Notes under the pieces: model-generated
The model's database searches: none
What the model was told of the DNA's origin: nothing
Seen by the model: only the letters and a program-made list of their open reading frames with translations
Position numbers and translations under genes: made by a program
Shown here: in pieces, positions 1 through 21,121 of the stretch
Position numbering within the stretch: position 1 is the stretch's first letter
Layout of the letters: each line of letters opens with the position of its first letter
Assembly (NCBI GenBank): GCA_019057795.1
Contig: JAHLWS010000075.1
Span: 1 to 64,000, forward strand
Reading direction: 5' to 3'
Length of the DNA stretch: 64,000 nucleotides
DNA from: Promethearchaeota archaeon
Lineage (GTDB): Archaea; Asgardarchaeota; Lokiarchaeia; Sigyniarchaeales; SOKP01

Positions 1-1907
1 TGTCTTACGTTTTCGGGAAGCTCGTTGAAGTTTTCTGCTATAGCAAAAGCTACAGCCTCAGCGGCTTCTTCTTTTTCAGCAAGATATTTTAATAGTTCTA
101 TAAAAATTTCATCATAGAATTGCTCGTAATCATCAACTTCACTAATGAGATCTTTCATAGCTTTAAAGTATGATGGATGCGAAAATTTAATTCTATTATG
201 AGAGGTAATCTCTATTTTATCTTCTTTAAACCAATTAACAACATCGTTAAATTTCCTAGCATTTTCTAAATCTAAGCTCTCTATTAAGTTTTGGTAAGTT
301 TCTTTAACGAATTCCTCTCTCGCATATCCCAAAACATATAAAATTGTTAAAAATAACACCTTATCTTTGGTCATCTCCTTAATTTCTTTTAAAAATGCCC
401 ATGTGGTTCCCTCTGATTTATCTTTTATCATTGTTAGTAATTGCTCCTTTACATTAATATTGATACTTACTCCAACAAATTCTCTTATGTTTAAAAGCGT
501 AGGTAAATTATATTTGCTCTCTATCTGGTCTAGAACAAAATTCTTCAATTCTTCGTTATTTAACCATATACATTTTTTTAACATAGCCCAGTTTGTAAGA
601 ATTTCTTTTCTTTTTTCAGTAGTATAAGACGGCTTCCCAATGCTCAATCTCTTCTCAAACGCTTCAAGACGCGTTCCAGAGAAAGCTCCTTTTTTAAATT
701 CATTAAAAACTTCTTCCCTTGAGGTAATAATAATATATAAATCTTTAGCATTCTCGATCTCTTCTAAAATACTAGTTATTTTTCTTTCTAAATCGTATCT
801 TTTTTCATATTTAATTTTTCCAAAAGGATCTTCAAAATAAAGGATTTTCTTTGTTACTGGTTCCGATTCTAAATCTTTCATTTTTTGTAATCTGCTTCTG
901 ACATTTAATCTTTCTTCTCGATCTCCTCCTCGAATCCATTCTGGTTTGTATCCCGATTCATAATATTTCCACATAAGGTAAATTGCGGTGTATGTCTTTC
1001 CATATTCCGGCGTTCCTGTTATAAACACGATTTTCTTTTCTTTTAATGTTTTTGAAATTTCTTCAAATTCCAGAGGAGGAACATAAACCTTATCAATCCA
1101 CTTAAATTCATTAGGTAAATAACCCATGCTTGGAACAACGGGTTGACTTTGAAGAAAATGTTTCAAATATAAAGCAGCAGCATGGGCGGCAAATTTTTGC
1201 CATTTGTCTACTTTCAATTTATCCGCGTTATCAGAGATTCCTCTTACTGGAATAAATCCTGGCGGAGGTTTTGACATCCAAGTTGCTATAAGAACGCCCC
1301 AAGCTTCCATTTCAACTGCGAGCATTTTAGGAAGATATTTCAATAAATCATTTATAAACAGCTCACTGGCAACTACTTTCTCTCCAGAGGCTATAAGACC
1401 AAAATGTATATTAGGGTTATAAGGGTTTTCAGGGGGATTAACTGAAATTTCATCTATCCAATTGATATCCTTGAAATTTTTAAACCTATCAATTAATAAA
1501 GCATCGGTAAGCGCTCCCTCAGTTCTACGCTGGAGATTATCTGAAAAAGATTTACCCTTTTCGTAATATCCAATAGAGGTTCCAACGACGATATCACCAA
1601 TTTTAACTTCATTTTTTAATATTCCCCCGGCTATTCCAAGCATAATTACATGTTTAGGATGCAATTTTTCAATAACTTTTCCGCTTAAAACCCCTGCGTG
1701 AACATTACCCACATTTAATAATAAAACTAAGGTAACTTTATATGTTTCGATCTTATTAGGGAAGTGAATTTCTGTCTGATAATATGTCGGAATTTCGTCA
1801 TCTATTTGAATTGTTTCAAAGTTTCCTATTTGCTCAATAACTGCGTCTCGTTCAATTTCGAGGGCTGTAACAATCAAAAAATCAATATTGGTATTTAATC
1901 TACTCAT
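1..1907 (-). CDS. PNP/MTA-SAH nucleosidase + STAND (nSTAND3-like) NTPase + helical repeat protein (NLR/Avs-like), 3' end outside window
   Basis: Hand-translated from ATG 1907 (missing from the ORF track because there is no stop in the window): MSRLNTNIDFLIVTALEIERDAV...MLGIAGG...IGDIVV...IASGEKVVA...AVEMEA...VRGISD (PNP_UDP_1 motifs). Then IVFITGTPEYGKT (Walker A), ILYFEDPFG (Walker B), IIITSR, and at the edge AEAVAFAIAENFNELPENVR (repeat-like). Frame checked at 1907, 1310, 1001 and 59. Confidence 0.9.
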   Translation of the reverse strand, partial: MSRLNTNIDFLIVTALEIERDAVIEQIGNFETIQIDDEIPTYYQTEIHFPNKIETYKVTLVLLLNVGNVHAGVLSGKVIEKLHPKHVIMLGIAGGILKNEVKIGDIVVGTSIGYYEKGKSFSDNLQRRTEGALTDALLIDRFKNFKDINWIDEISVNPPENPYNPNIHFGLIASGEKVVASELFINDLLKYLPKMLAVEMEAWGVLIATWMSKPPPGFIPVRGISDNADKLKVDKWQKFAAHAAALYLKHFLQSQPVVPSMGYLPNEFKWIDKVYVPPLEFEEISKTLKEKKIVFITGTPEYGKTYTAIYLMWKYYESGYKPEWIRGGDREERLNVRSRLQKMKDLESEPVTKKILYFEDPFGKIKYEKRYDLERKITSILEEIENAKDLYIIITSREEVFNEFKKGAFSGTRLEAFEKRLSIGKPSYTTEKRKEILTNWAMLKKCIWLNNEELKNFVLDQIESKYNLPTLLNIREFVGVSININVKEQLLTMIKDKSEGTTWAFLKEIKEMTKDKVLFLTILYVLGYAREEFVKETYQNLIESLDLENARKFNDVVNWFKEDKIEITSHNRIKFSHPSYFKAMKDLISEVDDYEQFYDEIFIELLKYLAEKEEAAEAVAFAIAENFNELPENVR

Positions 1908-2469
1908 TATTACTTTCGGTTTTTTAAACCTTAATTAGATTTTCTGGAATTTTTAATCAATCGTTAAGTAAGATAAATTGTTAAGAATTTGGTATATCAT
2001 TTCGATTTATATTCTTAAAGAATTAAATCTTTTATTAAAACTCTCGCCATAACAAAATCTTGTGCCTAGCAAAAATCTCATTTCATCTGCACTTCATGTA
2101 ATTCGAATAGAATGCTTATTTTTATAAAGATTGGTGATTAAATAACATCGCTAAATTTGGGAGTGGTGGAGTTAAAGAATATTGGCAGGAATCGCCTTTT
2201 TTATAATCATCATTTTAAAGGTGTTAAAGACAATTAATCTGCTAATAAGGACACTTTATTAATCTTTAACAACAAAGTATATTTTATTAAGAAATATCTT
2301 CTAGGAAAATTTACAGAATTTTTAATAATTAAATATGACCAAGAAAAAGAAAAAGTATGAAGATTATTATTCATTAGACGTAAAAAGAAAAGGATACTTA
2401 ATTTTTCTGATTTATTGATGATGATATTAAAAAGATTTGATTATGATTTTATTAGTAAATTAATATTTA

Positions 2470-4065
2470 TTGGGGTGTATCAACATAGGACTAATTGATT
2501 TTATAATTACAAATGATAGAAATAATTTGGATCAATTTATCAAAGAAGTAAAAGAAATTTTAGTTTTCTTTGATCCGATTAGCAATCAAATTCAAAAACT
2601 CATTGTGGATTTTTATAAACGTAAACCAGGATGCTCTTGGAATGATGAAAAATTTAAATACGATATACACGTTCTTAGTTTTGGATATCAACTTAAATCA
2701 CTAGATGGAATCATTTTTCGTTTGTTAGAGGATTTCATTAAAGAAAATATTGATAAATGGATTCAAAAGTTTTCAAATAAAGATTGGTTTGAATATAACA
2801 AAGATTTTTATTATATTGCTAAAGAAATTTGTAATTTCTTAACGAGAATTTTTATTAATGCTTATTCTGGTGAAAATCTTCAGATTATAATAAGTAGAGA
2901 GCTCGACATTTTGTTTGAAATAAAATCTCCAATTACAAAAAGGATTAAACAAGTTATTATTCAAAATTTAGCATTGGAAAAAGATCAAGTTTTTGATTTT
3001 AAAGACCAAATTTTAACAATAAAAGGCCGAGAAGAGAGATGGCACGAAGGAAAGATTGCTAAATCATGTAAAATTAATGATTTTTCTTTAAAATTAAGCT
3101 TTCGTTTGCGTAGGATTTCGCCAGAAGAATTCGAATTGTTCTCTAATTCAAGAGGGTTGCTTACTGACCAGATGAACATATCTACTTGTTTAGAAATAAT
3201 ATATGAATTTCCTAATGACAGATTTGCATCAAGGCTTTCTGAATTAACATTCCAATCTCATTTAGCTACTTATGAAGTTGCAGATTTTATTGATAAAACC
3301 ATTAATAAATTAGTAATTGCAATTAAATTCTCTACAGGATCGTATGTATATCCTGTTGTTTTAAAGTCTATTCCTCAGAATTATTATCTGCAGAAGTTTT
3401 TTCCTGAAGGTTTTACTATTCGCCATAGAAATTGGATGTATTCATTCTTCACAGGAAAATGTATAATCGATTTAGAAAGGTTTAAAACAATCCAAGACAT
3501 TTTCGATCTCTTAATCGATTTTGAGAAATTCCAAATTGCTGAACAAGTCTTGACGATAATGGAGCGTGCTGATAGTGCTTTACAATATGAATTATTTTTA
3601 ACTTCAATTACGATGTATTGGATAATTACAGAATCAATTTTATCTGGAAGTAAAGTTACTATTGCAGAACAAATAAGTTGGTTATATGGTCCTTTACGAA
3701 GAAATGTTGAGAGAGAGTTTTGGAAATTAGTCTATAACCTCAGAAATGATTATATGCATGGTAAAATCTGGAATACTATAAAAGATAAAATAAAAATTAA
3801 ATATCAAAGCAAAAATATTAAATGGTTCGTCTTAGTGACTCGTGAAAAAATAATGCGTGTATTACTTTTTTTATTTTTTTTACATAAATCATCAGATCCA
3901 CTAGAGGAATTATTCAAAACTCGTAAAAATTTTAATTATCCTCCTTCACTCACTCATAGTGATTGGAATAAATTCAAAAAATGGATTCAACTAGGAAAAG
4001 AAAATGAATTAGGAAGTCCACAAAAATATAAAATTAGGATTGGATTAAAACTTATTTCAATTTAA
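2470..4065 (+). CDS. HEPN-domain (Apea-like) protein
   Basis: C-terminal helical region with YWIITESIL ... YNLRNDYMHG (R-x4-H HEPN motif). TTG start is uncertain; upstream short ORFs hint at a frameshifted N-terminus. Confidence 0.7.
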   Translation: MGCINIGLIDFIITNDRNNLDQFIKEVKEILVFFDPISNQIQKLIVDFYKRKPGCSWNDEKFKYDIHVLSFGYQLKSLDGIIFRLLEDFIKENIDKWIQKFSNKDWFEYNKDFYYIAKEICNFLTRIFINAYSGENLQIIISRELDILFEIKSPITKRIKQVIIQNLALEKDQVFDFKDQILTIKGREERWHEGKIAKSCKINDFSLKLSFRLRRISPEEFELFSNSRGLLTDQMNISTCLEIIYEFPNDRFASRLSELTFQSHLATYEVADFIDKTINKLVIAIKFSTGSYVYPVVLKSIPQNYYLQKFFPEGFTIRHRNWMYSFFTGKCIIDLERFKTIQDIFDLLIDFEKFQIAEQVLTIMERADSALQYELFLTSITMYWIITESILSGSKVTIAEQISWLYGPLRRNVEREFWKLVYNLRNDYMHGKIWNTIKDKIKIKYQSKNIKWFVLVTREKIMRVLLFLFFLHKSSDPLEELFKTRKNFNYPPSLTHSDWNKFKKWIQLGKENELGSPQKYKIRIGLKLISI

Positions 4066-4474
4066 ACAAACAAGTTCTTTTCTAATTTAAATGAGAAACG
4101 ATATCTGCGTTTAACTTTTTTGCGATTTTTTCTGCTTGGGTCAATTCTTTTTTTTCCTATTCTAACGGGAGTTAGTTATTTATAAGAGTATTTACATACC
4201 ATAATTGACAAAAAAATTTGTAGTTATCTATGGTTGGAAGTCTCTTTATGAATTTATGGCTGCTCAAAACCTGAACGCATATGGCTATTTGTAACTCTAG
4301 GTATAAACAAGTTTTTTTTTCTCTCAGGTTATCCAAGCCTGTGATTTCATATATTTTTTTGTACACTTATGTAAAGATTTAAATTTAATTACTACTTAAG
4401 TTTAATTTAAAAATTAATGATTTAGATTTGAAATCTTTTCAGGTAATTATTACAACTAAAAATTTTGATGTATC

Positions 4475-5827
4475 ATGGATATTAAGGATGAGAAAGAAGA
4501 ACCGTATAAAATTGATAAAAAGGCAATGGTTTTACTTGCTTCAGATATACACATGGGAGCATTAAGAACAAATATAAGCTTATTTAATGATTTTCTGACA
4601 AACATAATTAGTGGATTAAAAGTTGAATATCTTAAAAATTTAAAAGCCCTCATAATATTGGGTGATTGCTTCGATATAATTATGGATAACTACGAGGATT
4701 TTTATGAACACAAGTTATATAACGATATTTTAAACAAATTTAATATTTTACATGAAATGGACGATTTTAAGTTAATTTTTTCTCTTGGTAATCATGAAGT
4801 TTCCGTAAAGGATGACTATGATAAAAATTTCTTAATTGAGAAGTCAAGTTTTCTGGATGAATTTAATAAAGTTAATAATCAATTTGGAGACAAATATTCT
4901 TTCTTAACTAAGAATAATTTTTCTCAATATGTTATTTTAAAAAATAATATTTCATTAAAACCTGAACTCTTCTTATATGACACCAAACAACAAATAGCTG
5001 AGAATAAAGGAATTATAATTCAATTAAACATTAAAGCATCTGCAAAAAAGAATAATAATATCCTCCTAACCCATGGTTTTCAATTTGACCCTAATTTAGA
5101 CTTTTTTTCGAAAGTATGGGACTTCTCTTTGAAGGTAAAATCTAAAATCGTAAAAGAAATAGCAGATGGAATCTGGAATGGATTCTTTAAGGTAATTTAT
5201 AACAAAGGTAGAAGGTTAAGAGATTATTCTGAAAAACGCAAAGACAGACTTAATAAAAAAGGCAAAAGATTACTTGATAAAACGACTAAAAGTTATTTTG
5301 AGAAATATAAGTTAGAGATCAGTGAACTTGAAAAGACACGATTAGATGAGTTAATTGAGAAGAAGTATAGAGCAGACAAACATAGAGATGATATAAAGGA
5401 CAATTCATTCAATAAAAAAGTTGAAACTGAGTTTTTACCAAAATTGGAAGATTTAGGATATAAAGAACATTTTAATTATATTATATATGGTCATACTCAT
5501 CGCAGATGGCCCCGTACTTTTTTCAGGAGGATAAAGCCTATATATCAGCAACTTGAGCTTTTTAAAATAAAAGACACATTTCTTTTCAATACTGGCGCAT
5601 GGCAACATGTGGATTATCCAAGTTTTATCCAAATTGATAACGATTGGAATATTAGCTTGGTCGATATAAAAACAAAAATAAGCAAAGTTGAAGAAATTTT
5701 AGAAAAGCCACCCTCCCAGAGATTAAAACAAGAACTATTTAAACCACAGCAACAAATCCAACCCCAACAAGAAATTCAAAAAAAACAAGGTATAGAGCTT
5801 AAATTGAAAAAAGATTACGACTTCTGA
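4475..5827 (+). CDS. Calcineurin-like metallophosphoesterase
   Basis: Motifs SDIHMG, GDCFD, GNHE, THG, GHTH, NTGAW; Q-rich C-terminal tail. Confidence 0.85.
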   Translation: MDIKDEKEEPYKIDKKAMVLLASDIHMGALRTNISLFNDFLTNIISGLKVEYLKNLKALIILGDCFDIIMDNYEDFYEHKLYNDILNKFNILHEMDDFKLIFSLGNHEVSVKDDYDKNFLIEKSSFLDEFNKVNNQFGDKYSFLTKNNFSQYVILKNNISLKPELFLYDTKQQIAENKGIIIQLNIKASAKKNNNILLTHGFQFDPNLDFFSKVWDFSLKVKSKIVKEIADGIWNGFFKVIYNKGRRLRDYSEKRKDRLNKKGKRLLDKTTKSYFEKYKLEISELEKTRLDELIEKKYRADKHRDDIKDNSFNKKVETEFLPKLEDLGYKEHFNYIIYGHTHRRWPRTFFRRIKPIYQQLELFKIKDTFLFNTGAWQHVDYPSFIQIDNDWNISLVDIKTKISKVEEILEKPPSQRLKQELFKPQQQIQPQQEIQKKQGIELKLKKDYDF

Positions 5828-5882
5828 CTGATGCCGTATGACTGAAAAAGATTTCAGACTAATTTCTAAATTTTTAATTATA

Positions 5883-6518
5883 TCATAACCTATTTTTTTT
5901 TCTTTTTAATATAAGAATTACTTTTTCTAGCTCTTTATCTATATCATGAGGGAACATTTCACCCAATTCGAACTCATCAGCACAATAAACTAAAGAATAG
6001 GTTATATCATTCATGAATAATCCTTGAAATATAACAAACCAATCATTCAAATGATCACGTAATTTTTGAGTTAAGTCCAAGAATATTTCTATCTTAAGAT
6101 TAGCTATACTTCGTAATTTTATTAAATGTCCTTCATTTAACCAATCCATAATCCTCTGATTTTCTCGTCTCATATTCTCCTTTGTAAAAGTTCTTATTAA
6201 TTTGAACTTTTCAAGTTCTTTCTCACTATAAAGGTTATGTAACTTCCGAAATAAATCATTATATCCCTTATAATATCTCTCCTTTATAACTGGTTCATTA
6301 GCATAGGTCTCTTGTAAATATTCACTAAATTCGTTTCGCTTAAGACCTTGTTGTATATGAGCATTTTTAGATTGTAGTAGTATTGTTTGAAAGCGCTCTA
6401 AGTTATGGATTAATTCTTTTCTTTCCTTTTTCATAACAGTAAAAAAATCAGTAAAGATCTTAAGAAAATAACCTAAAAATAGCGTAATGATTGGAAATAA
6501 CAATTCAAATAAATCCAT
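5883..6518 (-). CDS. Hypothetical protein with N-terminal TM helix
   Basis: 211-aa ORF with hydrophobic N-terminus and helical body; upstream AGGGTAAG purine-rich tract. Confidence 0.6.
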   Translation of the reverse strand: MDLFELLFPIITLFLGYFLKIFTDFFTVMKKERKELIHNLERFQTILLQSKNAHIQQGLKRNEFSEYLQETYANEPVIKERYYKGYNDLFRKLHNLYSEKELEKFKLIRTFTKENMRRENQRIMDWLNEGHLIKLRSIANLKIEIFLDLTQKLRDHLNDWFVIFQGLFMNDITYSLVYCADEFELGEMFPHDIDKELEKVILILKRKKNRL

Positions 6519-6831
6519 TTGTGATCTTACCCTCTATTTAATATCAATTTTGCATGTGTAATAGAATGTTATTTTTGATTTAATTTCAATAGAAATTTAA
6601 GATACTTAAGAATTTAAAGTTCTTTACGAAAAAGAGAATTCTCTAATCACCGTTTAAAATCTAAAATATTTTTTTTTAAAGATGTAACAATCTAAAACTA
6701 ATATAAACGCTATAATAGAGTCTGTTCCTCCATAAAACACATTCTTTAAAGCTGCGTTTTAGGAATGGAATACTCTTTAAAGAGAGTAAATCATGAAAAA
6801 AAAAAGTGAGATTTGATTATGTCTAAAATTG

Positions 6832-7206
6832 CTAAACTACAGCGCTAACCAATGCAGCTTCTATAACGATTATTGCATTTGACAAAAATATCCCTACATT
6901 TGCCGAAGGAATAACGTATGCAGGAATTAGAAGAATAAAGCTGATTAATCCTATTATCCCTCTAACTAGCCATGGTTTGTTAATGAAGGGTCGTAATTCT
7001 TTCCTTTTCTCTGCATCAGGATCTTTTTCATTTACGGTTCTTTTACTAAAGTAAAAAATGAGTATACCGTTATATGCACCAGTTAGCACTGGAACACCCA
7101 CATCATCTGAAGGTATAAATAATAATAGAATTCCAAAAATTAATAACCCAACTACGATCACCAATGATATCATTTCATACTGCCCAAATTTCATTTTATT
7201 AACCAA
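6832..7206 (-). CDS. Small 4-TM membrane protein
   Basis: Four hydrophobic segments; two halves weakly similar (IPSDDVGV / IPSANVGI). Confidence 0.6.
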   Translation of the reverse strand: MVNKMKFGQYEMISLVIVVGLLIFGILLLFIPSDDVGVPVLTGAYNGILIFYFSKRTVNEKDPDAEKRKELRPFINKPWLVRGIIGLISFILLIPAYVIPSANVGIFLSNAIIVIEAALVSAVV

Positions 7207-7483
7207 CTCTTTTAATTTTTTTTCTAAAATTTTTACTTTTATGTAAACTTATTTTCATTTTAAATAAAAGTTTAGTAAATTCTTCAATAATAATTACGGA
7301 AATCTTCATATATAAAGTTTATATTTTTCTGGATTCCGAAATCCATATTTATATAAATCGCAAAATATCCGACAAAAAGAGATAATCTCTGTAATATATT
7401 ATTACTTCTCTGATAAGATTGACACAAAATTAATGATAGCTTTATTAATTTTTAACTTTATAAATTTCTGAATAAAACTGTAT

Positions 7484-7579
7484 TTTTTTAACGATATATC
7501 TCATCCTATACGAGATCATTATGAAATAACACCAACAGGGAGAGACCATTTTGAAAAAAAATTTAAAGAAATAGAATAG
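7484..7579 (+). pseudogene. Remnant of a winged-helix (PadR-like) C-terminus
   Basis: Start-less frame ...RDHYEITPTGRDHFEKKFKEIE* resembles the YEITxxGR wing of PadR/wHTH proteins. Confidence 0.35.
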
Positions 7580-7976
7580 AGAGTCTTAGCAAATTTATTC
7601 GCATTTTTTTAATCATATTACTTTTTCCAGAAATGTTTTATTTCTTCTAAGTACTCCGCTAGTTTTGATTTATCCAATCAATTACGGAACGCAAAAAACT
7701 TCTTTCCTACATTATTATAGAGCAATCCTAATCTCGTTAAGCCAATTTTCAAACATAATAAAGATCCTCATCCATCCTTAAATTACAGATTTTGGTAGTC
7801 ACATAAGCAAGGAAACATTCTCGGGCTTCTTTTAGGGCTTTATGTTTGTGTTTTTCCATAAGGAAGAGAAGCCCATAGAAAATAGATAAACATTTAGTAG
7901 ATATTTTTTTATTTTTAATTATAATAGCATACCAATCATGAATAAAATTGTACCTTATAATAATTCGTGTAAAAAA

Positions 7977-8447
7977 TTAAGAACCTATGAGCAGCTCAAC
8001 TAACAATGTCTTGGGATCGTATGCAATACCTTCAATTCTAAGATCGGTTATGTAATGACCCCAGATGCCATACCTTCCTTGAGATGGTTTCCTATTATAT
8101 AGATTTTCGTAAGTTCCAGGATCACCCGCATCTTTTTCTTCAGTTTCGTATATCTTTTTATACCCTTCATAAATACAGCGAAACAAATCCAATCTAGTAA
8201 ATCCGCCTTTATTAGTGTATTCAAAGCTCGCCTTATTTTTTAAAGGGTAGGTAAACACAATAGAAACAGTCTCTTCTCTTATCAAAAGCTTCTTAGGACC
8301 TATAATCGCATTTAACACATCTTGTTTTTCCCAATCGACTACGTAAGTACATAAAACTCCGTGATCACCCGATTTATAAAGAATTTCAAGAACCTCTTTG
8401 CCGGGGTAAAATTTTCGCATCCTTCTTGTAAAAGAATTATCTTCCAT
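7977..8447 (-). CDS. Conserved hypothetical protein
   Basis: 156 aa with motif-like YPL..GGFTR...YKKIY...NR..GRYGIWGH...DL.IEG. Confidence 0.7.
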   Translation of the reverse strand: MEDNSFTRRMRKFYPGKEVLEILYKSGDHGVLCTYVVDWEKQDVLNAIIGPKKLLIREETVSIVFTYPLKNKASFEYTNKGGFTRLDLFRCIYEGYKKIYETEEKDAGDPGTYENLYNRKPSQGRYGIWGHYITDLRIEGIAYDPKTLLVELLIGS

Positions 8448-8835
8448 ATACTTTCACTTGGTTTTGTAATTATTAAATACTTATTTTGATCATTAATTGT
8501 TATTCTTTTATTTAAAGGAAAATTTAATCTAGCACTTTGGAGAGAATTCTTAACGATTTTTACCTGAAAAGATCTATAAATATTTTTTAACTCAAATTGC
8601 TAATGGAATTACCCAAACTAATGTTAGGAGTAAAAAATCTTCACTCATCAAACAACCTTTTTATAAAAAATACATATTATCAATAATTCTACCAATGCCA
8701 TTTAGTAATTCTCTTCCTTTTTGGATTTATATTTTCATGATATCTGATTCTCTAATTTTATCAAACATTCTACTCATAATTCTACGATTAGCCTTTTCTG
8801 AAAGAGAATAGAATTTGATTATTAATAAATTCTAA

Positions 8836-9045
8836 TTATACAATATTAGGGGTATACCTAATCAGGAATTGATTTAAGTAATTTTCTGGATCTTTAAAAA
8901 TTGAGTTTAAGTAATTATGAAAATCGCTGCCTCCTCCAAATGACCAGCCCATGTAATTGAACCATGCTGATCCGCGTTTATAGAATTTAATCGACTGACT
9001 AGTAATTTTCACTTGATAGTTGTTATACTTGTAGGCGTTGTACAC
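8836..9045 (-). pseudogene. Short ORF / probable gene fragment
   Basis: 69-aa GTG ORF with protein-like composition in a decayed region. Confidence 0.3.
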
Positions 9046-9241
9046 TTTTCAAATATGATTAAACGTTTAGTTTAATTTATAAGGATAGACGGTATAATAT
9101 TTTACAATAGCAGTAATTAAACCTCGCGAGTTAAAAACACCTAAAAAGCCAGAGAAAAATAAAAGAAGATTATTACTATATGGGTTAACCTTGAAAAAAG
9201 TATCTGATAAAATACTTTTTATTGTTTAGAAGGGATATTAA

Positions 9242-11038
9242 TTGAAGAAGACAAAAAACCAAGAAATAAGAGACATTTCAGAAGCTCTACTAAAAAAGAA
9301 TTTCGCTAGTTGGCCTTTTAATCCTTTACCTGATGATTATGGTCTGGATTTTTTCATTAGTATTGCTCAAGATGAGGAAGTTTTAGAGTATAATTTTCTT
9401 GTTCAATTAAAAGGATCTGATTCCCTAGATTATAAAGACGGCTTTTTTAATTTTGTTATGAAAACAAAACATTTACAAAGTTATATTAAAAATCCAATTC
9501 CAATCTTATTAGTTATTTATGATGTTAATACAGAAAGTGGTTATTGGATTAATATTCAGAAATATTGTAGAAATATTTTAAATGTTCAAGATCCTGATTG
9601 GATTGCCCAAAAAACAAAGAGTATAAAAATTTCGATTAACAATCAGTTAAATGACCTAGGTCTCATAAGAAATGAAATAATTCAATCTACAAATGAAAAT
9701 ATGATAATTTATGTTGAAAATATGAAATGGCCAGAAGGGTTTGAAAATTTTATAGATAATCCGGATAGAATTGTAGATATAATAAATAAAACGGAAATTG
9801 AGAATATAAAAAGAAGAATTCATTCATCTTTATTATATTTCCGAAGAGATAATATTAGGGAAATGCAAAATCAATTTTTTGAAATTTATAAACTTAAAAA
9901 GAGAGATAGACATCATCTACAAGCAATTTTAGCAATTATGACAAGTAGTAATATCTTTACAGAAAAAATCGAAACATTTATAAAACTAACAGATGAAGGG
10001 ATTCAACTTTCTGAGGAATTAAAGGATCAACTTTATTGTAATATTTTTAAATTTTTTTTCCATTATTACTCTACATTTGAAATTTTAACGAAACAACAAA
10101 TACCAAATATCTTAAAAAGATTAGAGGCTTCAAAGAAATCTAATCAGATTGATGTTTTTATTAAACTCATTTGGGAGTCTGAAAATATCGATTTAAATAA
10201 TCTGTTGAAAGAACATAGTAGAAAAATATTGGAGATTTTAAACATATTGCTTGAATCAGGGGATTTATTTGAGTATCATACATTAAGTCTACATTTATTG
10301 CAAATAGAAGTATTTTTAAACTCTATTCTTAAAGATCATATAGAAATGTCTGTATTTTCAAAAGTCTTAGAAAAGAATGAACGATTCATCCAGCTCATGG
10401 TTGAATTATCAGAAAAATTTGAAATTATTGATAATCAACTCCATACATATTTATTAACTGGTGGATATTATGAGGCTTATAACCAAGATAAAGCAGAGGA
10501 ATTTTACCGAAAAGGCCTAAGATTGGCTAAAAATTCTAACCATCAGTATTACATAAAAAAATTTAATTATAATTTAGAAAATCTAGGACGCACATCAGAA
10601 TTATTCACTTTAAATGATATAGTTAAAATGCCCTTATCTAAAACTATAGAAACCCTAAAAATATTTAAATTCTCAAATTTAAACTCAATTGAAGATTCCC
10701 TTATTAGAGGTTCTTTGAAATTGGCATTAAATGACCTTAATCCAGTTAATATTTTAAAAAAATGTAAAAGTATTCTAGTTGGATATTATCCTTCAACTTT
10801 AGGGCAGGCAGAGGGTATATATTCTTTAGGTTTAAAAAGGATCACATGTGAAAGATATAAAATTATTTATGAATCTGGAAATCTTAGAAATATATTTGAT
10901 CTTTATGAAAAAAAATATTGTAGTCAATGTGATAAAATTAATCCAAGAGAACACGATTATAATCCTCCAACATCAATTATTAGTGAAATGACTGAAAGAA
11001 TCAATGAGATTGGTCAAAATTCAAGTAAAAATACTTAA
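9242..11038 (+). CDS. DUF4365 (PD-(D/E)XK-type nuclease) + helical/TPR-like region + Cys-rich C-terminus
   Basis: N-terminal DDYGLD...FLVQLKG...PILLVIYD..GYW typical of DUF4365; one TPR-like AEEFYRKGLRLA; C-terminal C..C..CSQC. Confidence 0.8.
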   Translation: MKKTKNQEIRDISEALLKKNFASWPFNPLPDDYGLDFFISIAQDEEVLEYNFLVQLKGSDSLDYKDGFFNFVMKTKHLQSYIKNPIPILLVIYDVNTESGYWINIQKYCRNILNVQDPDWIAQKTKSIKISINNQLNDLGLIRNEIIQSTNENMIIYVENMKWPEGFENFIDNPDRIVDIINKTEIENIKRRIHSSLLYFRRDNIREMQNQFFEIYKLKKRDRHHLQAILAIMTSSNIFTEKIETFIKLTDEGIQLSEELKDQLYCNIFKFFFHYYSTFEILTKQQIPNILKRLEASKKSNQIDVFIKLIWESENIDLNNLLKEHSRKILEILNILLESGDLFEYHTLSLHLLQIEVFLNSILKDHIEMSVFSKVLEKNERFIQLMVELSEKFEIIDNQLHTYLLTGGYYEAYNQDKAEEFYRKGLRLAKNSNHQYYIKKFNYNLENLGRTSELFTLNDIVKMPLSKTIETLKIFKFSNLNSIEDSLIRGSLKLALNDLNPVNILKKCKSILVGYYPSTLGQAEGIYSLGLKRITCERYKIIYESGNLRNIFDLYEKKYCSQCDKINPREHDYNPPTSIISEMTERINEIGQNSSKNT

Positions 11039-11402
11039 AAGGGGATTAATTATTTTAAAGATGTAAGTAAATATTCTTTGCTTTTCTTCATGTACTTTCT
11101 CAATAATATTTTCAATTTCAGCCACTAAAATATATCACCCATTCTTTTCCTCTATTTTATTTCAGTTCATTTTATTTTCAGAATTAAAATTTAGCTCCAC
11201 TTTATTTAAATAACAAATTATATTAACATCTCTCAATTTTTAAAATATCTATTACTTTGTGAACATTTTCGCAATCAAAGGTATGGAAACAACCTTTTAT
11301 TATCAAAATGGGATTATTAAAGCATTAATATGGAATTTTATTAGGAAAAAAATATACATTCTAGCTTGAAATAGGTTATAAAAAAAGGAGTGATAACATT
11401 AA

Positions 11403-12677
11403 ATGAGCTTGAGAAATCTAATTAATAAGGGTGAATCAAACATAATTGAATTTAAAGAGACCTTCAGATATAATGTAGAAACTCAAAGTAAGGATAAATC
11501 ATTAAAAAATGAAGTATCTAAAGCCGTCTGTGGGATGCTCAACTCGGAAGGGGGAAAAGTTTTAATAGGAGTCGCTGATAATAAAACTATTGAGGGCATA
11601 CAGAGAGATTTAAATCTTTATGGTAAAGGAGACGAATCAACTCAACTAGATAGGTTACTTATCGATTTATATAAGCATATTACGGATTCTATTGATATCA
11701 AATCTAAGAAGTTTCTTAAAATTAAAGTGGTTGAAATTGATGGGAAAAAAATAGTCAAGATCGAAATTAAACCCTCAAATGAGCCTTTTTTTCACTCTGG
11801 AGATTTTTTTTATGTTCGTGATGGTCCAAGGACTATTCATCTATTGGGTAAAAAAATGGTAGATTATATTTCCGATAGGGCAAAAACCTTAAATGCTAAA
11901 TCCCCCGAGAAAATCCTCCAAGAAAAACTTGGGGTTATAAATCTTGAGTTTCAAAAATGGGCTCAAGATAAACTAAAGCAAAATCTTTCCTTGGAAGTGA
12001 ATAAGAATAATCCAGATGGAAGAATATATGACTACATTCTTGGGTGTATAATGCCAACTACACTTTCTAAAGATTTAATAGATTTTAATTCGAATCTTAT
12101 CAAAGATTATATTGACAATTATTCTATCATCAAAAGATCTCAAACTTACAAAACCCCTGATTATGCAAGACAATATGAACAATTTTTTGGTGAAGAAATT
12201 TTAATATTTCCTAATGGAAAGGTATGCTTTTGCCAAATTTATAGTTCTTTTCATAAGGAACAACCTGATTTTTCTTTAGGCACTTTAGAGAGTGCTGGTT
12301 ATGAGCGTTTAGTTGTGAAGAAGTTTAAAGAGAAGTATTCTGCCCCATTTTCGTATATAAAGTGGGGAAGTTTAGACTCTCTTTTGGAAGTCATTTGTTT
12401 TCTTTTCCATCCAAAATGTAAAATTAATTTGGTAAATTCACCAACAGATTTATTTCATTTGGAAATAATAGTTCCTAACATGATATATGAGGGAAGAAGG
12501 AGAGTTCTCTCTTCATTTGGAGGATTTCCAAGTCATAAAAGGTATTTAGGAACAAAAAAAGATATTTTTTTCCGCAAATTATTTAGATTTAATGAAATAG
12601 GTAAGATTATAGAGGCTCTAAAAAGCCATATCATGGAATATTATAAAAATCCTGCTAATATGGGATATAGCAGATAA
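11403..12677 (+). CDS. Schlafen/AlbA_2-domain protein
   Basis: GESNIIEFKET...KAVCGMLNSEGGKVLIGVADN...FYVRDG; SD GGAGTGA upstream. Confidence 0.85.
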   Translation: MSLRNLINKGESNIIEFKETFRYNVETQSKDKSLKNEVSKAVCGMLNSEGGKVLIGVADNKTIEGIQRDLNLYGKGDESTQLDRLLIDLYKHITDSIDIKSKKFLKIKVVEIDGKKIVKIEIKPSNEPFFHSGDFFYVRDGPRTIHLLGKKMVDYISDRAKTLNAKSPEKILQEKLGVINLEFQKWAQDKLKQNLSLEVNKNNPDGRIYDYILGCIMPTTLSKDLIDFNSNLIKDYIDNYSIIKRSQTYKTPDYARQYEQFFGEEILIFPNGKVCFCQIYSSFHKEQPDFSLGTLESAGYERLVVKKFKEKYSAPFSYIKWGSLDSLLEVICFLFHPKCKINLVNSPTDLFHLEIIVPNMIYEGRRRVLSSFGGFPSHKRYLGTKKDIFFRKLFRFNEIGKIIEALKSHIMEYYKNPANMGYSR

Positions 12678-12712
12678 TTTTAATGATCATTTCAATCATA
12701 TGTTCCTTAAAT

Positions 12713-12756
12713 ATTATGACAGTAGCACTATTGTTTGGAATTTAAAAAGCCGTAAA
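12713..12756 (+). repeat. Orphan copy of the 3' end of the plsY-kinase genes (direct repeat)
   Basis: ATTATGACAGTAGCACTATTGTTTGG is identical at 12713, 19621 and 21021; 41/44 match to 19621-19664, followed by a T-tract. Confidence 0.9.
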
Positions 12757-12836
12757 GTCTTTTTTTTTTCTTTTTTATTAAATTTTTTACCTAATCGTTC
12801 CAAAAGATCAAATGCGATGAAGAGAGTACGAGTTGT

Positions 12837-15017
12837 TTATTTTATAAGTAGCTTTTGAATTTCCTCTGCCTTTTTGAAGCATTTTAAAGCATCTTCAAAT
12901 CTTCTAATTTCTCGATAAAGATTGCCCAAATTATAGTATCTCATAATTAAGAATTGAGGATCTTTGGTATTATGTGCTATTTCAATTGCTTTCTGGTAAC
13001 AAGTAATTGCATTGTTATATTTTCCTTTTTCTTTAAATATTAAGCCAATATTGTTCAGAGCTACTCCTCTTAGTCTTAAATACTCGTTCTCTTTTGCGAT
13101 TTTTAGGACTTTTTTAAATTTGGATAAAGCTTCATCAAAATCATTTTCTATACGAGCAATATCACCAAGGCTATTTAACCTAATACCAACAGACCGTAAA
13201 TTTCCTTCTTTTTGGGCAATATTCAATGCTTTAGAATAATAATCTTTTGCCTTATCATATTCTCTTGTGTCCAAATATACTTTTCCTAGATTGCTATATA
13301 TAAATCCTTTAAGACCGTTAAGTTCATATCTTTCAATAATGTTTAATGCTTCTTCTAGTTTTTCGATTGCTAAAGAGAATTTTTGGGCGTAAATATACAC
13401 TGCTCCCATATTTCCTAAAATTTCTACCTTGCTAGGTTCTAGTCTAAGCGAATCAAAAATATCACTTGCTTGAGCAAGACATGTGAGCGCTTCATCTAAT
13501 TTTAACTCTGATGTTAAAATTTTCCCCATAAGATTTAAGCTAGATGCTAATTGATGTAATACTCCAAGTTTTTTATTTAACTCAATTGCTTGAGAGAGAT
13601 ATTTTTTAGCTCTACCCGTATTCCCTTGTTCATGAAAAAGAGTCGCCATATTGAAATATATAGTAGAAATTCTATGTTTATTTCTATACTTTTTAGCAAT
13701 TTGAAGCGCTTTTTGATAACTTTTTAACGCTTCGTTATAACGAGCTAATGAACTTAAGATTGTTCCTTGATCGAGATAAAATAAGGAGATTTCTATTTCC
13801 TCCTTTGATTTTGAAACAATATCCAACCCTCTATTTAGGTATTCAAGTCCTTTTATTAATTCACCTTTTTCAGCGTAGGCATTTCCAGCATTAGCATAGG
13901 TTAATCCTAATAACCATTCTTCCCATTTATTTAATCTTCTTTTCTCACATATTTTGATTATTTTAAGGGCCAATCGTAATGAATCATTAAAGAATTCTAA
14001 TTCATGGTAAATTCTATGTGCGTTGTATAATTTTACCAAATGATTAGGATTAGGGAGATTTTGTTGTAAAAATTCATTAATCTGAAGATTGAACACCTCA
14101 TGTGTTAATTGATAATCAACCTTAACTAATTGAGACAAAATTTTATTGGTGTTTCCTCTTAAGACAAAAAAATTTTCTGCTATATTTTTCTCTAAAAAAG
14201 ATTTTAATATTTGTTTTAAAGCTTCCTTAATAGGTAATGTACTAAGAATTTCTACATTATCAATTAGATAACTATCAAACAGAGTTTTATTATCATCATG
14301 GTCAACCCAGATTATACTTTTGACTTTATTGAGTTTGTATAAAGCCGGTATGATATCAAAGTCATCACTACCAGAATAACCTATTACAACTATGTTATTA
14401 TCCTGTGAAAACTGTTCAAATAACTTCTTTTTATTTGGATCTAATTCAAATAAATCGAAACCACTTTTATTTTTACCAAATGCGCTTAGGGTTGACATTA
14501 TTGAATCTTTAGTGTCTTGTTTAGTTATTATATTCTTAAGAGAACCATGTAATTTATAGATAGGATATTTACCTTGGGAAAATAGCTTTTTAGGATTAAA
14601 ATATTGTTTGTAATCATTATTAGAAATTACAGGAATGATCTGATTCTTTGATATGTTAGAGTTTAAAAGGGCTAATTCTATCAAATGGTCGAAATTGGTT
14701 GTCATGACAATACTATGGTTTTTTAGTAATTCGACAAGAGTATAATGATAATGGTTAGGAGAATCGCATAAACCGTAATAGTCTAATATTTTAAGCTCAT
14801 GATCTAAAGTTCGACTTAGAGTTCCAACTAAACCCTCAAATCGTAATTCTTTAATATTTAAAATTTTCTCAATTTCAGGTTTAGGACATAGGAACTTTAT
14901 AATTTCCTCCATCATGACCTTTGCTGACGGTAAGTTAGAGGGGGTATCTATTGAGCATCCTGCTCCAACTAGAAAAATTAAATTGTCCTTAGTAAACAAT
15001 GAGTCGAAATCAAACAT
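12837..15017 (-). CDS. SIR2-like NADase domain + TPR repeats
   Basis: FLVGAGCS, TTNFD, KLHGS, VIGYSGSDDFDI, then about 9 TPR-like repeats. Confidence 0.9.
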   Translation of the reverse strand: MFDFDSLFTKDNLIFLVGAGCSIDTPSNLPSAKVMMEEIIKFLCPKPEIEKILNIKELRFEGLVGTLSRTLDHELKILDYYGLCDSPNHYHYTLVELLKNHSIVMTTNFDHLIELALLNSNISKNQIIPVISNNDYKQYFNPKKLFSQGKYPIYKLHGSLKNIITKQDTKDSIMSTLSAFGKNKSGFDLFELDPNKKKLFEQFSQDNNIVVIGYSGSDDFDIIPALYKLNKVKSIIWVDHDDNKTLFDSYLIDNVEILSTLPIKEALKQILKSFLEKNIAENFFVLRGNTNKILSQLVKVDYQLTHEVFNLQINEFLQQNLPNPNHLVKLYNAHRIYHELEFFNDSLRLALKIIKICEKRRLNKWEEWLLGLTYANAGNAYAEKGELIKGLEYLNRGLDIVSKSKEEIEISLFYLDQGTILSSLARYNEALKSYQKALQIAKKYRNKHRISTIYFNMATLFHEQGNTGRAKKYLSQAIELNKKLGVLHQLASSLNLMGKILTSELKLDEALTCLAQASDIFDSLRLEPSKVEILGNMGAVYIYAQKFSLAIEKLEEALNIIERYELNGLKGFIYSNLGKVYLDTREYDKAKDYYSKALNIAQKEGNLRSVGIRLNSLGDIARIENDFDEALSKFKKVLKIAKENEYLRLRGVALNNIGLIFKEKGKYNNAITCYQKAIEIAHNTKDPQFLIMRYYNLGNLYREIRRFEDALKCFKKAEEIQKLLIK

Positions 15018-15479
15018 TTATTAGTTTTTGTTGTATTCTAAATATACCATAAAAATTCATAAATAAAAAGATGTTAGTAAGAAACACTTGGAGAAGGATT
15101 AATTTTAATAATTAAATCTAATTAAAAATAATCTCATTAATAATATTATCTAAATAATGGACATTCTCTTCATTAAGATTTCGCAATCGCAATAGCCTCC
15201 CAGCTCTTTACATTTTTTCTTTTTCCATTAAATTTTTTACTTTATTAATCGTTTTGTTTTTTTTAATTTACGATATAGACCAATGACAGCCGAGCAGCTG
15301 TTAAACTAACTTCATTAGGACTCTAAGCATATTTTTTATTATCTCTCTTTTTTTTTTTTTCTACAAATTCTATTCACTAACATTTGTATCCAATCTGTAT
15401 TTTTTATTGAAATAAAACTGAAAAAAAAAATTTTGATCTTTAAAATTTTAAATGTAACCTTAAAGTGAATTCGTTAACT

Positions 15480-15563
15480 TTAACAACAACTTTCTTTTGA
15501 TTGGCATTCCTCATCATCATTTTTTGGTTTTTCAGAACAACATTCTTTATCTTTATCTCCCAT
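15480..15563 (-). CDS. 27-aa Cys-rich micropeptide (MGDKDKECCSEKPKNDDEECQSKESCC)
   Basis: ATG with strong SD AAGGAGGT ~10 nt upstream; own BRE/TATA; 5 Cys including two CC pairs. Below the ORF-track cutoff. Confidence 0.75.
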   Translation of the reverse strand: MGDKDKECCSEKPKNDDEECQSKESCC

Positions 15564-15605
15564 GCGTAATTAAGACCTCCTTTATAATTAATTGTTAATT
15601 GATTA

Positions 15606-15637
15606 ATAGTTAGGATCCTAACTATATAAATGTTTCG
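15606..15637 (-). promoter_or_regulatory. Perfect 20-bp palindromic operator (15606-15625) abutting TATA/BRE of the micropeptide gene
   Basis: ATAGTTAGGATCCTAACTAT; on the minus strand CGAAACA-TTTATATA directly upstream and overlapping it. Confidence 0.75.
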
Positions 15638-15705
15638 TTCCGTATAATTAAGAACTTAACAAAATGATCTATAATGTAATTATAAAGGAATAGCAAGTTA
15701 ACTCT

Positions 15706-16170
15706 TTAATATTTTAGTGAGTTTAATAATTTCTGAAGTAAATCTCCTAACTTTTTCATCTCTTCTTGATTAATTTCTGGGCAACAGCCATTAACGATCG
15801 ATTCTAAAGGAGGTGTTATATTTTTTAATTTTTTGCCTTTTTCTGTGAGTTTAACAAGAAGACTCCTTCTATCAGAGGGGTGTAATTCACGAATGACTAT
15901 CTTCTTTTTTTCCATTGTATCTACTACCCCTGTAATTGTAGATCTTGAACATCCACATTTTTCTGCTAATTCTTTAAATTGTTGGCCATCAGATTCCCAA
16001 AGTTGACTTAAAATAAAATGCTGAGTTGGTGTAAGTTCTAATTCTTGAATTTTATCTCGCTGTAATTTTTCATATTTCTTATTTAGTGTATTAATTAAAG
16101 TAAACACATCAACAATATTTTCGGGTTTACAAGAATTTTCACAACTTTCAGGGGTTTCTTCTTCACTCAT
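15706..16170 (-). CDS. MarR-family regulator, Cys-rich
   Basis: LTPTQ..IL..L...ELA....SRSTITGVVD.MEKK..V.R....DRRS..V.LTEKG; extra CENSC, CGC and GCCP. Confidence 0.92.
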   Translation of the reverse strand: MSEEETPESCENSCKPENIVDVFTLINTLNKKYEKLQRDKIQELELTPTQHFILSQLWESDGQQFKELAEKCGCSRSTITGVVDTMEKKKIVIRELHPSDRRSLLVKLTEKGKKLKNITPPLESIVNGCCPEINQEEMKKLGDLLQKLLNSLKY

Positions 16171-16181
16171 GCTCTCATCAA

Positions 16182-16201
16182 ATTATTAGGAACATAATAA
16201 T
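16182..16201. promoter_or_regulatory. Degenerate second operator upstream of marR
   Basis: ATTATTAGGAACATAATAAT, an imperfect palindrome with 14/20 identity to the 15606 operator. Confidence 0.5.
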
Positions 16202-16558
16202 TAATATCCTTATAATCTTAATAATTCTCGATCTTATTTAATTTATTATCTTTTTTTTATCCATAATATCATAAAGAGGTTTTGTAACCTTCAATCCATG
16301 ACTAAGAATTAATTTATAAATGTTTCTTTTTTTTTTAAGGATATGATAATAACACGAATTAAACTAATTCTATTTGTTCTTTTAAAGTAAAAATTTCTTT
16401 TATATCTTATATTTGACATTTTCGGATAATTATTAAGTACTTATTTTATTTAGGTGTTTTTGATTATTAGAGAATTGAAAATAAGTCAAATATTTTTTGT
16501 GGTTGAGGAAATTATTAAAAATTGAAATTTAAAACAATAAATTAGAGAAAATCATTAG

Positions 16559-18301: not shown

Positions 18302-18444
18302 TTCTTAGTTTTTGGTTTGGTTAAAATTTAAATAAAATTGAAAATAAGATCAATAGTCACAGAGACTGTGAATTATCAAACCAAAAATAATTTTTAATAT
18401 TATTTACATAGGAATAAGATTTTTATTAAAGAGAGGGAGATTTT

Positions 18445-19653: not shown

Positions 19654-19847
19654 AAAGCCGTAAAAATTCTATTCTTTTTTTTTTTTTCATTTTTTTTTAT
19701 CATACTTAACAACGTAATTTTTCTATGATTTTGATACAACTAAAGTTTAAATATCACTAAATACAAGATAAATATGGATTAAAATGTAAATATTCATGCG
19801 TTATAAAAAAGCCAACAGAAGAAAAGTATCAAACATGAGGATGAGAA

Positions 19848-21053: not shown

Positions 21054-21121
21054 AAATAATTTTCTTATCAAATTCTTCAAAAAATAATGTTATATTAGAT
21101 AAATCTATCATAATTATAGGA

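Follow-up and report, generated by a model that had tools for sequence, protein, structure and literature searches.

A species-specific accessory region of a Lokiarchaeial genome that probably works as a defence island of single-gene effector-sensor proteins

The stretch of DNA analysed here (the window) comprises the first 64,000 nucleotides of contig JAHLWS010000075.1 of a Promethearchaeota archaeon, i.e. G000:C75:1-64000, where G000 denotes the window's own genome of 4.95 Mb, C55, C69, C75 and C77 are contigs of that genome, and position 1 is the first base of the contig. Positions 1-16,299 of the window probably represent, at a probability that we put at about 0.7, the right half of a species-specific accessory region that works as a defence island, flanked on one side by a conserved block with a TFB paralogue and on the other by an esterase/PlsY-fusion module, in this Lokiarchaeial (Promethearchaeia) genome. 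The block between 1 and 16.3 kb contains ten open reading frames (ORFs) of 124-726 amino acids and carries six types of enzymatic domain: PNP, HEPN, metallophosphoesterase, DUF4365, Schlafen and SIR2. A first-pass annotation, made from the letters of the window alone, had listed the same six types within positions 1-15,017, and all of them are present with intact catalytic motifs, the HEPN domain being recognised by motif, predicted model and relatives and not by Pfam. The island is of a known kind; each of its single-gene architectures adds a new member or a variant to a published family.

The island is an insertion relative to a sister species

When positions 1-20,000 were searched at the DNA level against 40 relatives, 24 of them from the same genus, the segment 16,300-20,000 was matched at 94% in the sister species G020, which is the closest relative, and at 77% in G005. 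Left of 15 kb, only short matches were found (at most 489 bp at 64-93% identity), the longest of them to the SIR2 coding region, and no island protein matches the ORFs of 12 loci taken beside the esterase gene of relatives. The block is accessory rather than syntenic core genome: it is absent from all 40 relatives at the DNA level, the flank from 16.3 kb onwards is kept, and the block is cut out exactly in G020. That flank (16559-21053) consists of the esterase and two PlsY-like fusion genes (G3P_acyltransf, 6e-30 and 2e-35), the proteins of which are 86-92% identical to those of G020.

Upstream of the esterase in G020, G005, G002, G008, G012, G015 and G014 stands a conserved block that ends in a 307-amino-acid TFB paralogue. 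G000 has its own copy of this block on a different contig, C55, where the proteins are 89-96% identical to those of G020 and the TFIIB repeats of the TFB paralogue were confirmed. The G020 spacer aligns to C55 up to position 27,966 (L025:1877-2067, 82%, L025 being the C55 locus) and then to window positions 16300-16700 (94.5%), with an overlap of 9 bp. As this single spacer joins both contigs, G000 has gained, relative to G020, all DNA between the two junctions: the last 14.66 kb of C55 and the first 16.3 kb of C75, together with an unassembled gap between the two. The right end of the block is therefore placed at 16,299 and not at 15,017, and its left end lies beyond the contig start. The G020 alignment puts the right junction at the 9 bp GACTAAGAA (16300..16308); the C55 left end carries GATTAAAAA, and a single GATTAAGAA is present at the empty site in G020. 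The end 9-mers could be a target-site duplication, or could match by chance, as the DNA is AT-rich and only seven of nine positions agree. Adjacency of C55 and C75 is inferred from synteny and not from sequence, and would give an insertion of at least 31 kb. Two observations count against this join: the last C55 ORF runs off the contig end on the opposite strand, and the missing end of the STAND gene was found on no contig.

The C55 half encodes a caspase (PADLOC, 1.6e-16) with a 441-amino-acid partner, an LmuA/Avs1a-like protein of the metallo-beta-lactamase (MBL) fold (6.3e-78), two adjacent leucine-rich repeat (LRR) ORFs and several ORFs without assignment. The LRR ORFs (L025:9041-11080; 195 and 469 amino acids) are on the same strand, 42 bp apart, and may be one gene split by a frameshift. 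Beside the left junction, C55:27082-27900 (L025:1183-2001) encodes a 272-amino-acid protein that has neither a Pfam nor a PADLOC match; the gene occurs at this site only in G000 and G020, and four paralogues with 41-55% identity are found on contigs C54, C76, C43 and C74.

Gene layout is as the first-pass annotation had described it, and decay is so only in part. The orientation of the ten ORFs is mixed (-++---++--), and the spacers are long (median 409 bp in the block, 140.5 bp in the rest of the window) and AT-rich (GC 0.19-0.26, against 0.314 for the genome). Coding density is 0.74 in the block and 0.84 outside, and the GC/GC3 (GC at third codon positions) of island genes equals that of flank genes (0.292/0.227 and 0.301/0.234); the island was compared with the rest of the window by coding density and by whole-genome family counts. 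No tRNA genes and no long direct or inverted repeats bound the block, and no Rfam family is found in it. The decayed remnants that had been proposed are reduced to one, a stump at 12713..12788 (plus strand), between two island genes, which preserves the 3' end of a PlsY-fusion gene like those at 18.4-21 kb (~10 codons with the stop) and the DNA that follows it. Its DNA is 83% identical to 19621-19696, 92% to 21021-21056 and 82-87% to the ends of this gene in relatives, and its frame closes with IMTVALLFGI before the stop, compared with IMTVALLFGL. A tblastx search of the ten spacers against the whole genome gave no further pseudogene fragments beyond three short DNA repeats. The stump suggests that the island was built piecemeal.

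Conflict-type domains are clustered far past chance

In six-frame searches of the 4.95-Mb genome, nSTAND3 is present in at most five copies over the cut-off, SIR2_2 in four, and DUF4365 and AlbA_2 in two each; among the nSTAND3 matches, the one in the window is the sole strong one (81.6 bits). A co-occurrence of all four families within 15,017 bp was obtained in 16 of 2,000,000 random placements, in a test that was devised post hoc. The block is enriched in conflict-type domains far past chance.

Family assignments of the individual proteins come from Pfam and PADLOC scans of 14 ORFs of the window, supplemented by motifs, predicted models and searches of 150 genomes of the order, 41 of which belong to the genus. 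Searches of PDB sequences by phmmer with the SIR2 domain, the Schlafen fusion, the DUF4365 fusion, the phosphoesterase and the first island gene of C55 returned nothing.

Five single-gene proteins with candidate effector domains

The gene at 3..1907 (minus strand) encodes a PNP domain (PNP_UDP_1, 1.5e-13, residues 11-245) followed by nSTAND3 (3.8e-22). Its 3' end is cut by the contig start; by comparison with relatives some 100-300 amino acids are missing, and queries with the C-termini of three homologues did not locate the STAND C-terminus on any contig of the assembly. PADLOC models hit the PNP domain as PDC-M60C (4.6e-35) and as a PN-superfamily effector (5.1e-22), and the NCBIfam model for methylthioadenosine/S-adenosylhomocysteine (MTA/SAH) nucleosidase scores 79.7 bits, under its cut-off of 169. 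The PNP domain has the motif GISD at 223, which we take to hold the catalytic Asp of MTA/SAH nucleosidases, and nSTAND3 shows a Walker A motif (GTPEYGKT at 298) and an acidic, Walker-B-like ILYFED at 355. Homologues occur in nine of the 150 genomes and in none of the 41 of the genus. Six of the 11 matched places correspond to the nSTAND3 half only. Homologues of that half have, instead of PNP, a caspase, a C-terminal Ras/Roc domain or unassigned N-termini.

Judged by these domains, the protein is an Avs-like single-gene sensor. It shares with Avs proteins, including Avs5 and PNP-bearing Avs, an N-terminal effector followed by an nSTAND3 (PF20720) NTPase with Walker A. The PNP at the N-terminus of Avs is described as an ATP nucleosidase (Rousset et al., 10.1101/2023.01.24.525353), and Avs5 as Sir2-nSTAND3-TPR (10.1101/2025.07.08.663546). 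A further likeness is the PNP effector, which is of the MTA/SAH-nucleosidase fold and matches the PN-superfamily effector of PADLOC. Avs5 differs in carrying Sir2 where the window protein has PNP; moreover, the host here is archaeal and the C-terminal sensor is lost from the assembly. Membership of the immune PNP clade Cap17/DtcC is conjectural, the PNP domain being characterised here by the profile matches given above.

The SIR2 gene (12837..15017, minus strand) combines SIR2_2 (2e-10) with ~400 amino acids of tetratricopeptide repeats (TPR_12, 3e-51, and many other TPR families). The SIR2 motifs are intact (GAGCS at 18, TTNFD at 106, HGS at 157) and correspond to the set GAGxS, TTNxD and HG named in 10.1101/2025.07.08.663546; the protein is a putative NADase. 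PADLOC gave weak matches to Aga_SIR2 (6.7e-9), PDC-S65 and a generic SIR2 model, and none at E <= 0.01 to the ThsA or DSR models. The SIR2 domain with these motifs is common to ThsA of Thoeris, DSR1/DSR2, Avs5 and SIR2-APAZ. The partner in the window protein is, in contrast, a plain TPR region, without SLOG, STAND NTPase, APAZ or a DSR-type C-terminal domain, and its family, unlike those SIR2 defence proteins, is almost universal and multi-copy in the order. The closest match to the window copy is 48% identical. Further SIR2_2-TPR fusions were seen in G097, G037, G029 and other genomes, as ORFs of ~390-1414 amino acids.

The 531-amino-acid protein encoded by 2470..4065 (plus strand) has no PADLOC match and no Pfam match (no family at E <= 10, HEPN_Apea and ApeA_NTD1 included). 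It contains the motif RNxYxH as R425-N-D-Y-M-H430, in which R425, N426, Y428 and H430 are invariant in all 13 aligned relatives. The predicted model has a mean predicted local distance difference test score (pLDDT) of 72.8, and among the 16 leading rows of an exhaustive VIA-align comparison, 14 match HEPN domains to residues 350-479, with Z from 8.6 to 7.0 (2hsb 8.6, 8xdj 8.5, 4nqf 8.4, 7ae2 8.2; also Csm6, AbiA and AbiV), values that are moderate for a helical domain. Foldseek with the model found nothing in the PDB at E <= 0.001, and a profile of the family gave chance-level rows only among PDB sequences. Because of the consistency of the VIA-align list and the motif, we accept the C-terminal domain as a predicted HEPN domain and treat membership of ApeA as a possibility: HEPN_Apea matches three of 13 family members (best E 0.0027) and ApeA_NTD1 none, and the nearest Atlas cluster is 'Apea-like HEPN' (0.95). 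The protein is thus a putative, ApeA-like RNase. A C-terminal four-helix HEPN domain with invariant Rx4H is shared with ApeA, AbiV, AbiA and HEPN toxins. As opposed to ApeA, the window protein lacks both Pfam families, its N-terminal ~350 amino acids form a helix/beta region without a recognised fold, and its family is tiny (20 homologues, most above 60% identity). Among the 150 genomes it occurs in one, G099, another species of the genus, at 92% identity.

The gene at 9242..11038 (plus strand) joins DUF4365 (8.6e-18, residues 12-139) to a helical C-terminal domain of ~450 amino acids. PADLOC Aga_REase (Aga_REase-PNTD) matches at 7.4e-10 over residues 3-107 only, and the motifs DYGLD and QLK are present; the domain is a predicted DREN-type, PD-(D/E)xK-like nuclease. 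DREN/DUF4365 is reported from SPARDA, where DUF4365-APAZ is accompanied by a short Argonaute; the DUF4365 domain and the Aga_REase match are common to both. In the window protein, by contrast, no APAZ region was matched, no Argonaute family was found among the 14 ORFs scanned, and the nuclease is joined to the helical domain in a single gene. The fusion is present in two of the 150 genomes. A 69-71% paralogue of the helical domain alone, without the nuclease, is encoded on C77. At C77:8000-17000 we observed a second conflict-type cluster, which includes a 1027-amino-acid DUF4365 protein (from C77:15176, Pfam 1.8e-14) and this paralogue (447 amino acids), the DNA upstream of the latter being filled with stops.

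The Schlafen fusion (11403..12677, plus strand) has an N-terminal nuclease domain at residues 11-146 (SLFN_AlbA_2, 4.8e-19) in which ESNIIEFK at residues 11-18 (E11-SNII-E16-F-K18) provides Ex4ExK. Its 260-amino-acid C-terminal domain (residues 165-424) is rare, with 32 representatives in 1.84 billion proteins, and is C-terminal in all of them. Once five fragments of at most 143 amino acids were excluded, the N-terminal partners in the remaining 27 were AlbA_2 (two), protein kinase (three) and sequence without a Pfam family (22). The C-terminal domain is likely a sensor. Schlafen matches were found in 12 of the 150 genomes, with the N- and C-terminal halves matching separately. On a 32-kb contig (G088:C72) two proteins with this C-terminal domain occur together with a DUF4365-fusion homologue, an SMC-like ATPase and a TPR protein, and on G125:C12 a type I restriction system is encoded 6 kb away from a homologue. 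Prokaryotic Schlafen proteins (pSlfn) are described as nucleases with the motif Ex4(E/D)xK joined to diverse sensors (Nat Microbiol 2026, PMC13056530). The window protein has the same layout, an N-terminal Schlafen/AlbA_2 domain with that motif and a C-terminal accessory domain. In contrast to pSlfn, its accessory module has no relative in Pfam or the PDB, differs from the immunoglobulin-like sensor that RorSlfn5 has, and is also found behind protein kinases and N-termini of no assigned family.

The exchange of N-termini on the nSTAND3 and the Schlafen-C-terminal backbones is what one would expect if single-gene immune sensors can exchange their effectors, and PNP-Avs, Avs5 and pSlfn are published precedents for this. 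The effector-sensor fusions proposed by the first-pass annotation are accordingly seen as modular proteins with swapped effector domains in relatives. We propose that the island would consist of independent one-gene systems, each pairing a toxic enzyme with a recognition module. In this scheme a PNP-type nucleosidase that probably acts on ATP would be coupled to the nSTAND3 NTPase, a SIR2 NADase to the TPR repeats, a nuclease of the DUF4365/DREN type to the helical C-terminal domain, a Schlafen tRNase to the rare 260-amino-acid C-terminal domain, and a HEPN RNase to the N-terminal region of no assigned fold. Binding of a viral protein or nucleic acid to such a module would release the enzyme, which could then deplete ATP or NAD, or cut DNA or RNA, such that the infection is aborted.

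Weighing the defence reading

STAND, TPR, LRR and small-GTPase proteins abound in Asgard archaea, and the island genes might be lineage-specific signalling or housekeeping paralogues in a variable region that do not serve virus defence, a reading that we consider unlikely. Several results favour it and weigh against a defence island. The SIR2_2 family is found in 128 of the 150 genomes of the order and in all 41 of the genus, with as many as 14 copies per genome, and a form of ~1,355-1,370 amino acids occurs in most genomes of the genus; the order-wide SIR2_2-TPR set is a large lineage-specific expansion and may have a non-immune role, and with a presence in 128 of 150 genomes SIR2_2 is not diagnostic of defence. 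Relatives of the phosphoesterase occur in 59 of 150 genomes and in 48 of the 53 of the sister genus g12, at ~33% identity. One nSTAND3 homologue is fused to Ras/Roc, PADLOC assigned no island protein to a system that is both complete and validated, its hits being to candidate ('PDC') or partial models, and the neighbours of relatives of the 7977-8447 gene, described below, are mainly housekeeping or repeat proteins. The insertion site also weighs against the defence reading: of eight genomes syntenic between TFB and esterase, five have no gene there, G020 has one gene of 283 amino acids, which G000 has too, two genes of metabolic appearance are found in G012, and G000 has the island, so that an insert of any kind is present in three of eight and the other two are not defence-like. 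Content at the site is variable, as the first-pass annotation had expected of a comparison across genomes, and the gene turnover it had proposed holds to that extent; a recurrent defence hotspot is not borne out by the eight syntenic genomes. Against the paralogue reading stand the co-location of four rare families far past chance, effector domains of kinds shown experimentally to kill or arrest infected cells, a very patchy distribution (1-12 of 150 genomes) and the swapping of effectors on a common backbone, which is a signature of immune sensors. Clustering supports the defence island that had been proposed at first pass, and for the SIR2 and phosphoesterase genes the proposal is weaker than first stated.

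The inserted genes might instead have arrived as the load of a single integrated mobile element, or of a degraded provirus, and serve that element and not the host, e.g. in competitor exclusion. The clean insertion relative to G020, with its size of at least 31 kb, the imperfect 9-bp direct repeat at its ends, the restriction to a single species among those sampled, and the lower coding density and longer spacers than in the flank would all fit such an element. We nevertheless judge it to be distinctly improbable, as Pfam, PHROG and PADLOC scans (Pfam and PADLOC only for the C55 half) revealed no integrase, transposase or viral hallmark, neither a tRNA gene nor long terminal repeats are present, island genes have the GC and GC3 of the flank, the internal PlsY stump points to piecemeal assembly, and the 9-bp repeat, AT-rich and matching at 7/9, may be chance. 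An assembly or binning artefact, in the form of a chimeric contig end or a contaminant, is the explanation we hold to be very improbable indeed. The island does lie at the ends of two contigs of an 87-contig genome with an estimated contamination of 7.54%. However, on both contigs the sequence passes unbroken from island to flank, the flanks being 82-96% identical to G020, composition is native, and close homologues are known from the same genus or phylum (the HEPN protein at 92% in G099, the 5883-6518 protein at 83% in Promethearchaeota).

A species-specific defence island that is cleanly bounded, with the empty site of a sister species showing what was gained, adds candidate architectures from the prokaryotes that are most closely related to eukaryotes: a Schlafen protein whose C-terminal module is new, a nuclease of DREN type joined to a helical domain and without Argonaute, a SIR2-TPR protein lacking an NTPase, and PNP-nSTAND3. 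Schlafen, SIR2, PNP and STAND/NLR modules have eukaryotic immune counterparts. Surveys of Asgard-archaeal immunity to date, as described in PMC11291487, PMC13700489 and PMC12988326, rest on DefenseFinder or PADLOC calls. Surveys of this type would mostly miss proteins like those of the island, which match only candidate or partial models. The locus also advises caution in annotation by guilt of association: the family of one neighbour is large, undescribed and not linked to defence, and SIR2-TPR is almost universal in the order. That undescribed family, represented by the gene at 7977-8447, is the most interesting by-product of the analysis.

Passenger genes and an undescribed protein family

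We regard as passengers, and not as demonstrated defence genes, the metallophosphoesterase, the MarR gene and the three ORFs that had no annotation. The calcineurin-like metallophosphoesterase (4475..5827, plus strand, 450 amino acids) matches Pfam Metallophos at 5.4e-5 (24.1 bits, just over the cut-off of 21.5) and has five intact phosphoesterase motifs, including DIH, GDCFD, GNHE and GHTH, and a charged C-terminal tail. It has no PADLOC match, and its role in defence is doubtful.

The three unannotated ORFs (5883-6518, 6832-7206 and 7977-8447, all on the minus strand) had been put forward as candidate defence genes by association. None has a Pfam or PADLOC match, and NCBIfam and PHROGs add nothing. 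The 211-amino-acid protein of 5883..6518 is a near-orphan with one N-terminal hydrophobic segment (residues 1-28); it is present in none of the 150 genomes and has six close homologues (78-96% identity) in 5.8 billion proteins, including one at 83% in a Promethearchaeota record. The product of 6832..7206 (124 amino acids) is a small membrane protein with three to four hydrophobic segments (windows 6-41, 77-109 and 101-124), and is likewise a near-orphan, with two weak matches in the 150 genomes.

The 156-amino-acid protein of 7977..8447 has, in contrast to these near-orphans, 81 homologues, including a 71% paralogue on C69. A genomic search gave 119 relatives; of 80 that were kept, 12 are archaeal (Promethearchaeota or uncultured archaeon) and 68 bacterial, mostly Bacteroidota. 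Thirty relatives are on IMG/VR contigs, many of 100-330 kb, and there is no match among INPHARED phage records. Residues kept in at least 51 of 57 sequences from three sources are Y67-P-L, Y96, Y100, E103, N118-R, Y126-G-I-W-G-H131 and D135. The predicted model has a pLDDT of 95.5; Foldseek with it found nothing in the PDB at E <= 0.001, and the best VIA-align Z is 4.3, to beta-grasp domains over residues 57-156. The gene is a real one and a member of a large undescribed family, the core of which is beta-grasp-like according to the model. In Asgard archaea the domain is also found at the end of longer proteins, of 1787 (WD40 and LRR), 1322 (LRR and TPR) and 325 amino acids (LRR). In a Lacibacter metagenome-assembled genome, L075:6533-7417 places a relative in one frame with an N-terminal ParE-toxin domain (4.5e-7), which reflects either a genuine fusion or read-through of an upstream gene by the ORF caller.

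No neighbour family of the relatives occurs in more than five of 78 loci, and no conserved partner was identified. Of 121 listed neighbours, 83 from 24 loci were scanned, eight later loci, one short-ORF locus and three short ORFs having been dropped. Those scanned are mostly housekeeping (thermosome, FtsZ/FtsA, PurT, alanine racemase, transaldolase) or repeat proteins, and about four to six are of conflict type: SUKH and DUF4304 at one locus, WYL, patatin, and possibly ERCC4 and UvrD. As neighbours are mainly housekeeping and no partner recurs, defence by association, as proposed at first pass, is unsupported for this gene. A conserved pair of the gene with its downstream membrane ORF was also considered and rejected, since an unrelated ORF follows the paralogue on C69 and no family of neighbours exceeds five of the 78 loci. 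A tentative and rather unlikely possibility is that the domain is a new, deeply conserved, small enzymatic or ligand-binding domain acting in virus-host conflict. If so, it would serve innate immune receptors built on repeats as a so far undescribed effector, or viruses as a counter-effector to them, occurring as a standalone protein in Asgard archaea, Bacteroidota and large uncultivated viral genomes and as the C-terminal output of giant LRR/WD40/TPR proteins in Asgard archaea.

An 87-bp stretch of the window at 6635-6721, downstream of the membrane ORF, is 84% identical to C69:103082-103168, downstream of the 7977-8447 paralogue; the genes that lie between these stretches and the respective family members are unrelated. 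Near the right end of the insertion, and inside it, a MarR-family regulator is encoded at 15706..16170 (minus strand; Pfam MarR, 1e-16), for which the ~70% DNA matches in relatives sit elsewhere in those genomes. Upstream of the HEPN gene, window positions 2243-2389 are matched over 57-132 bp at 74-90% in G008 (four places), G002 and G004. The stretch 2200-2400 has no real copy elsewhere in G000, and the conserved part may be a promoter, a leader or a small mobile element.

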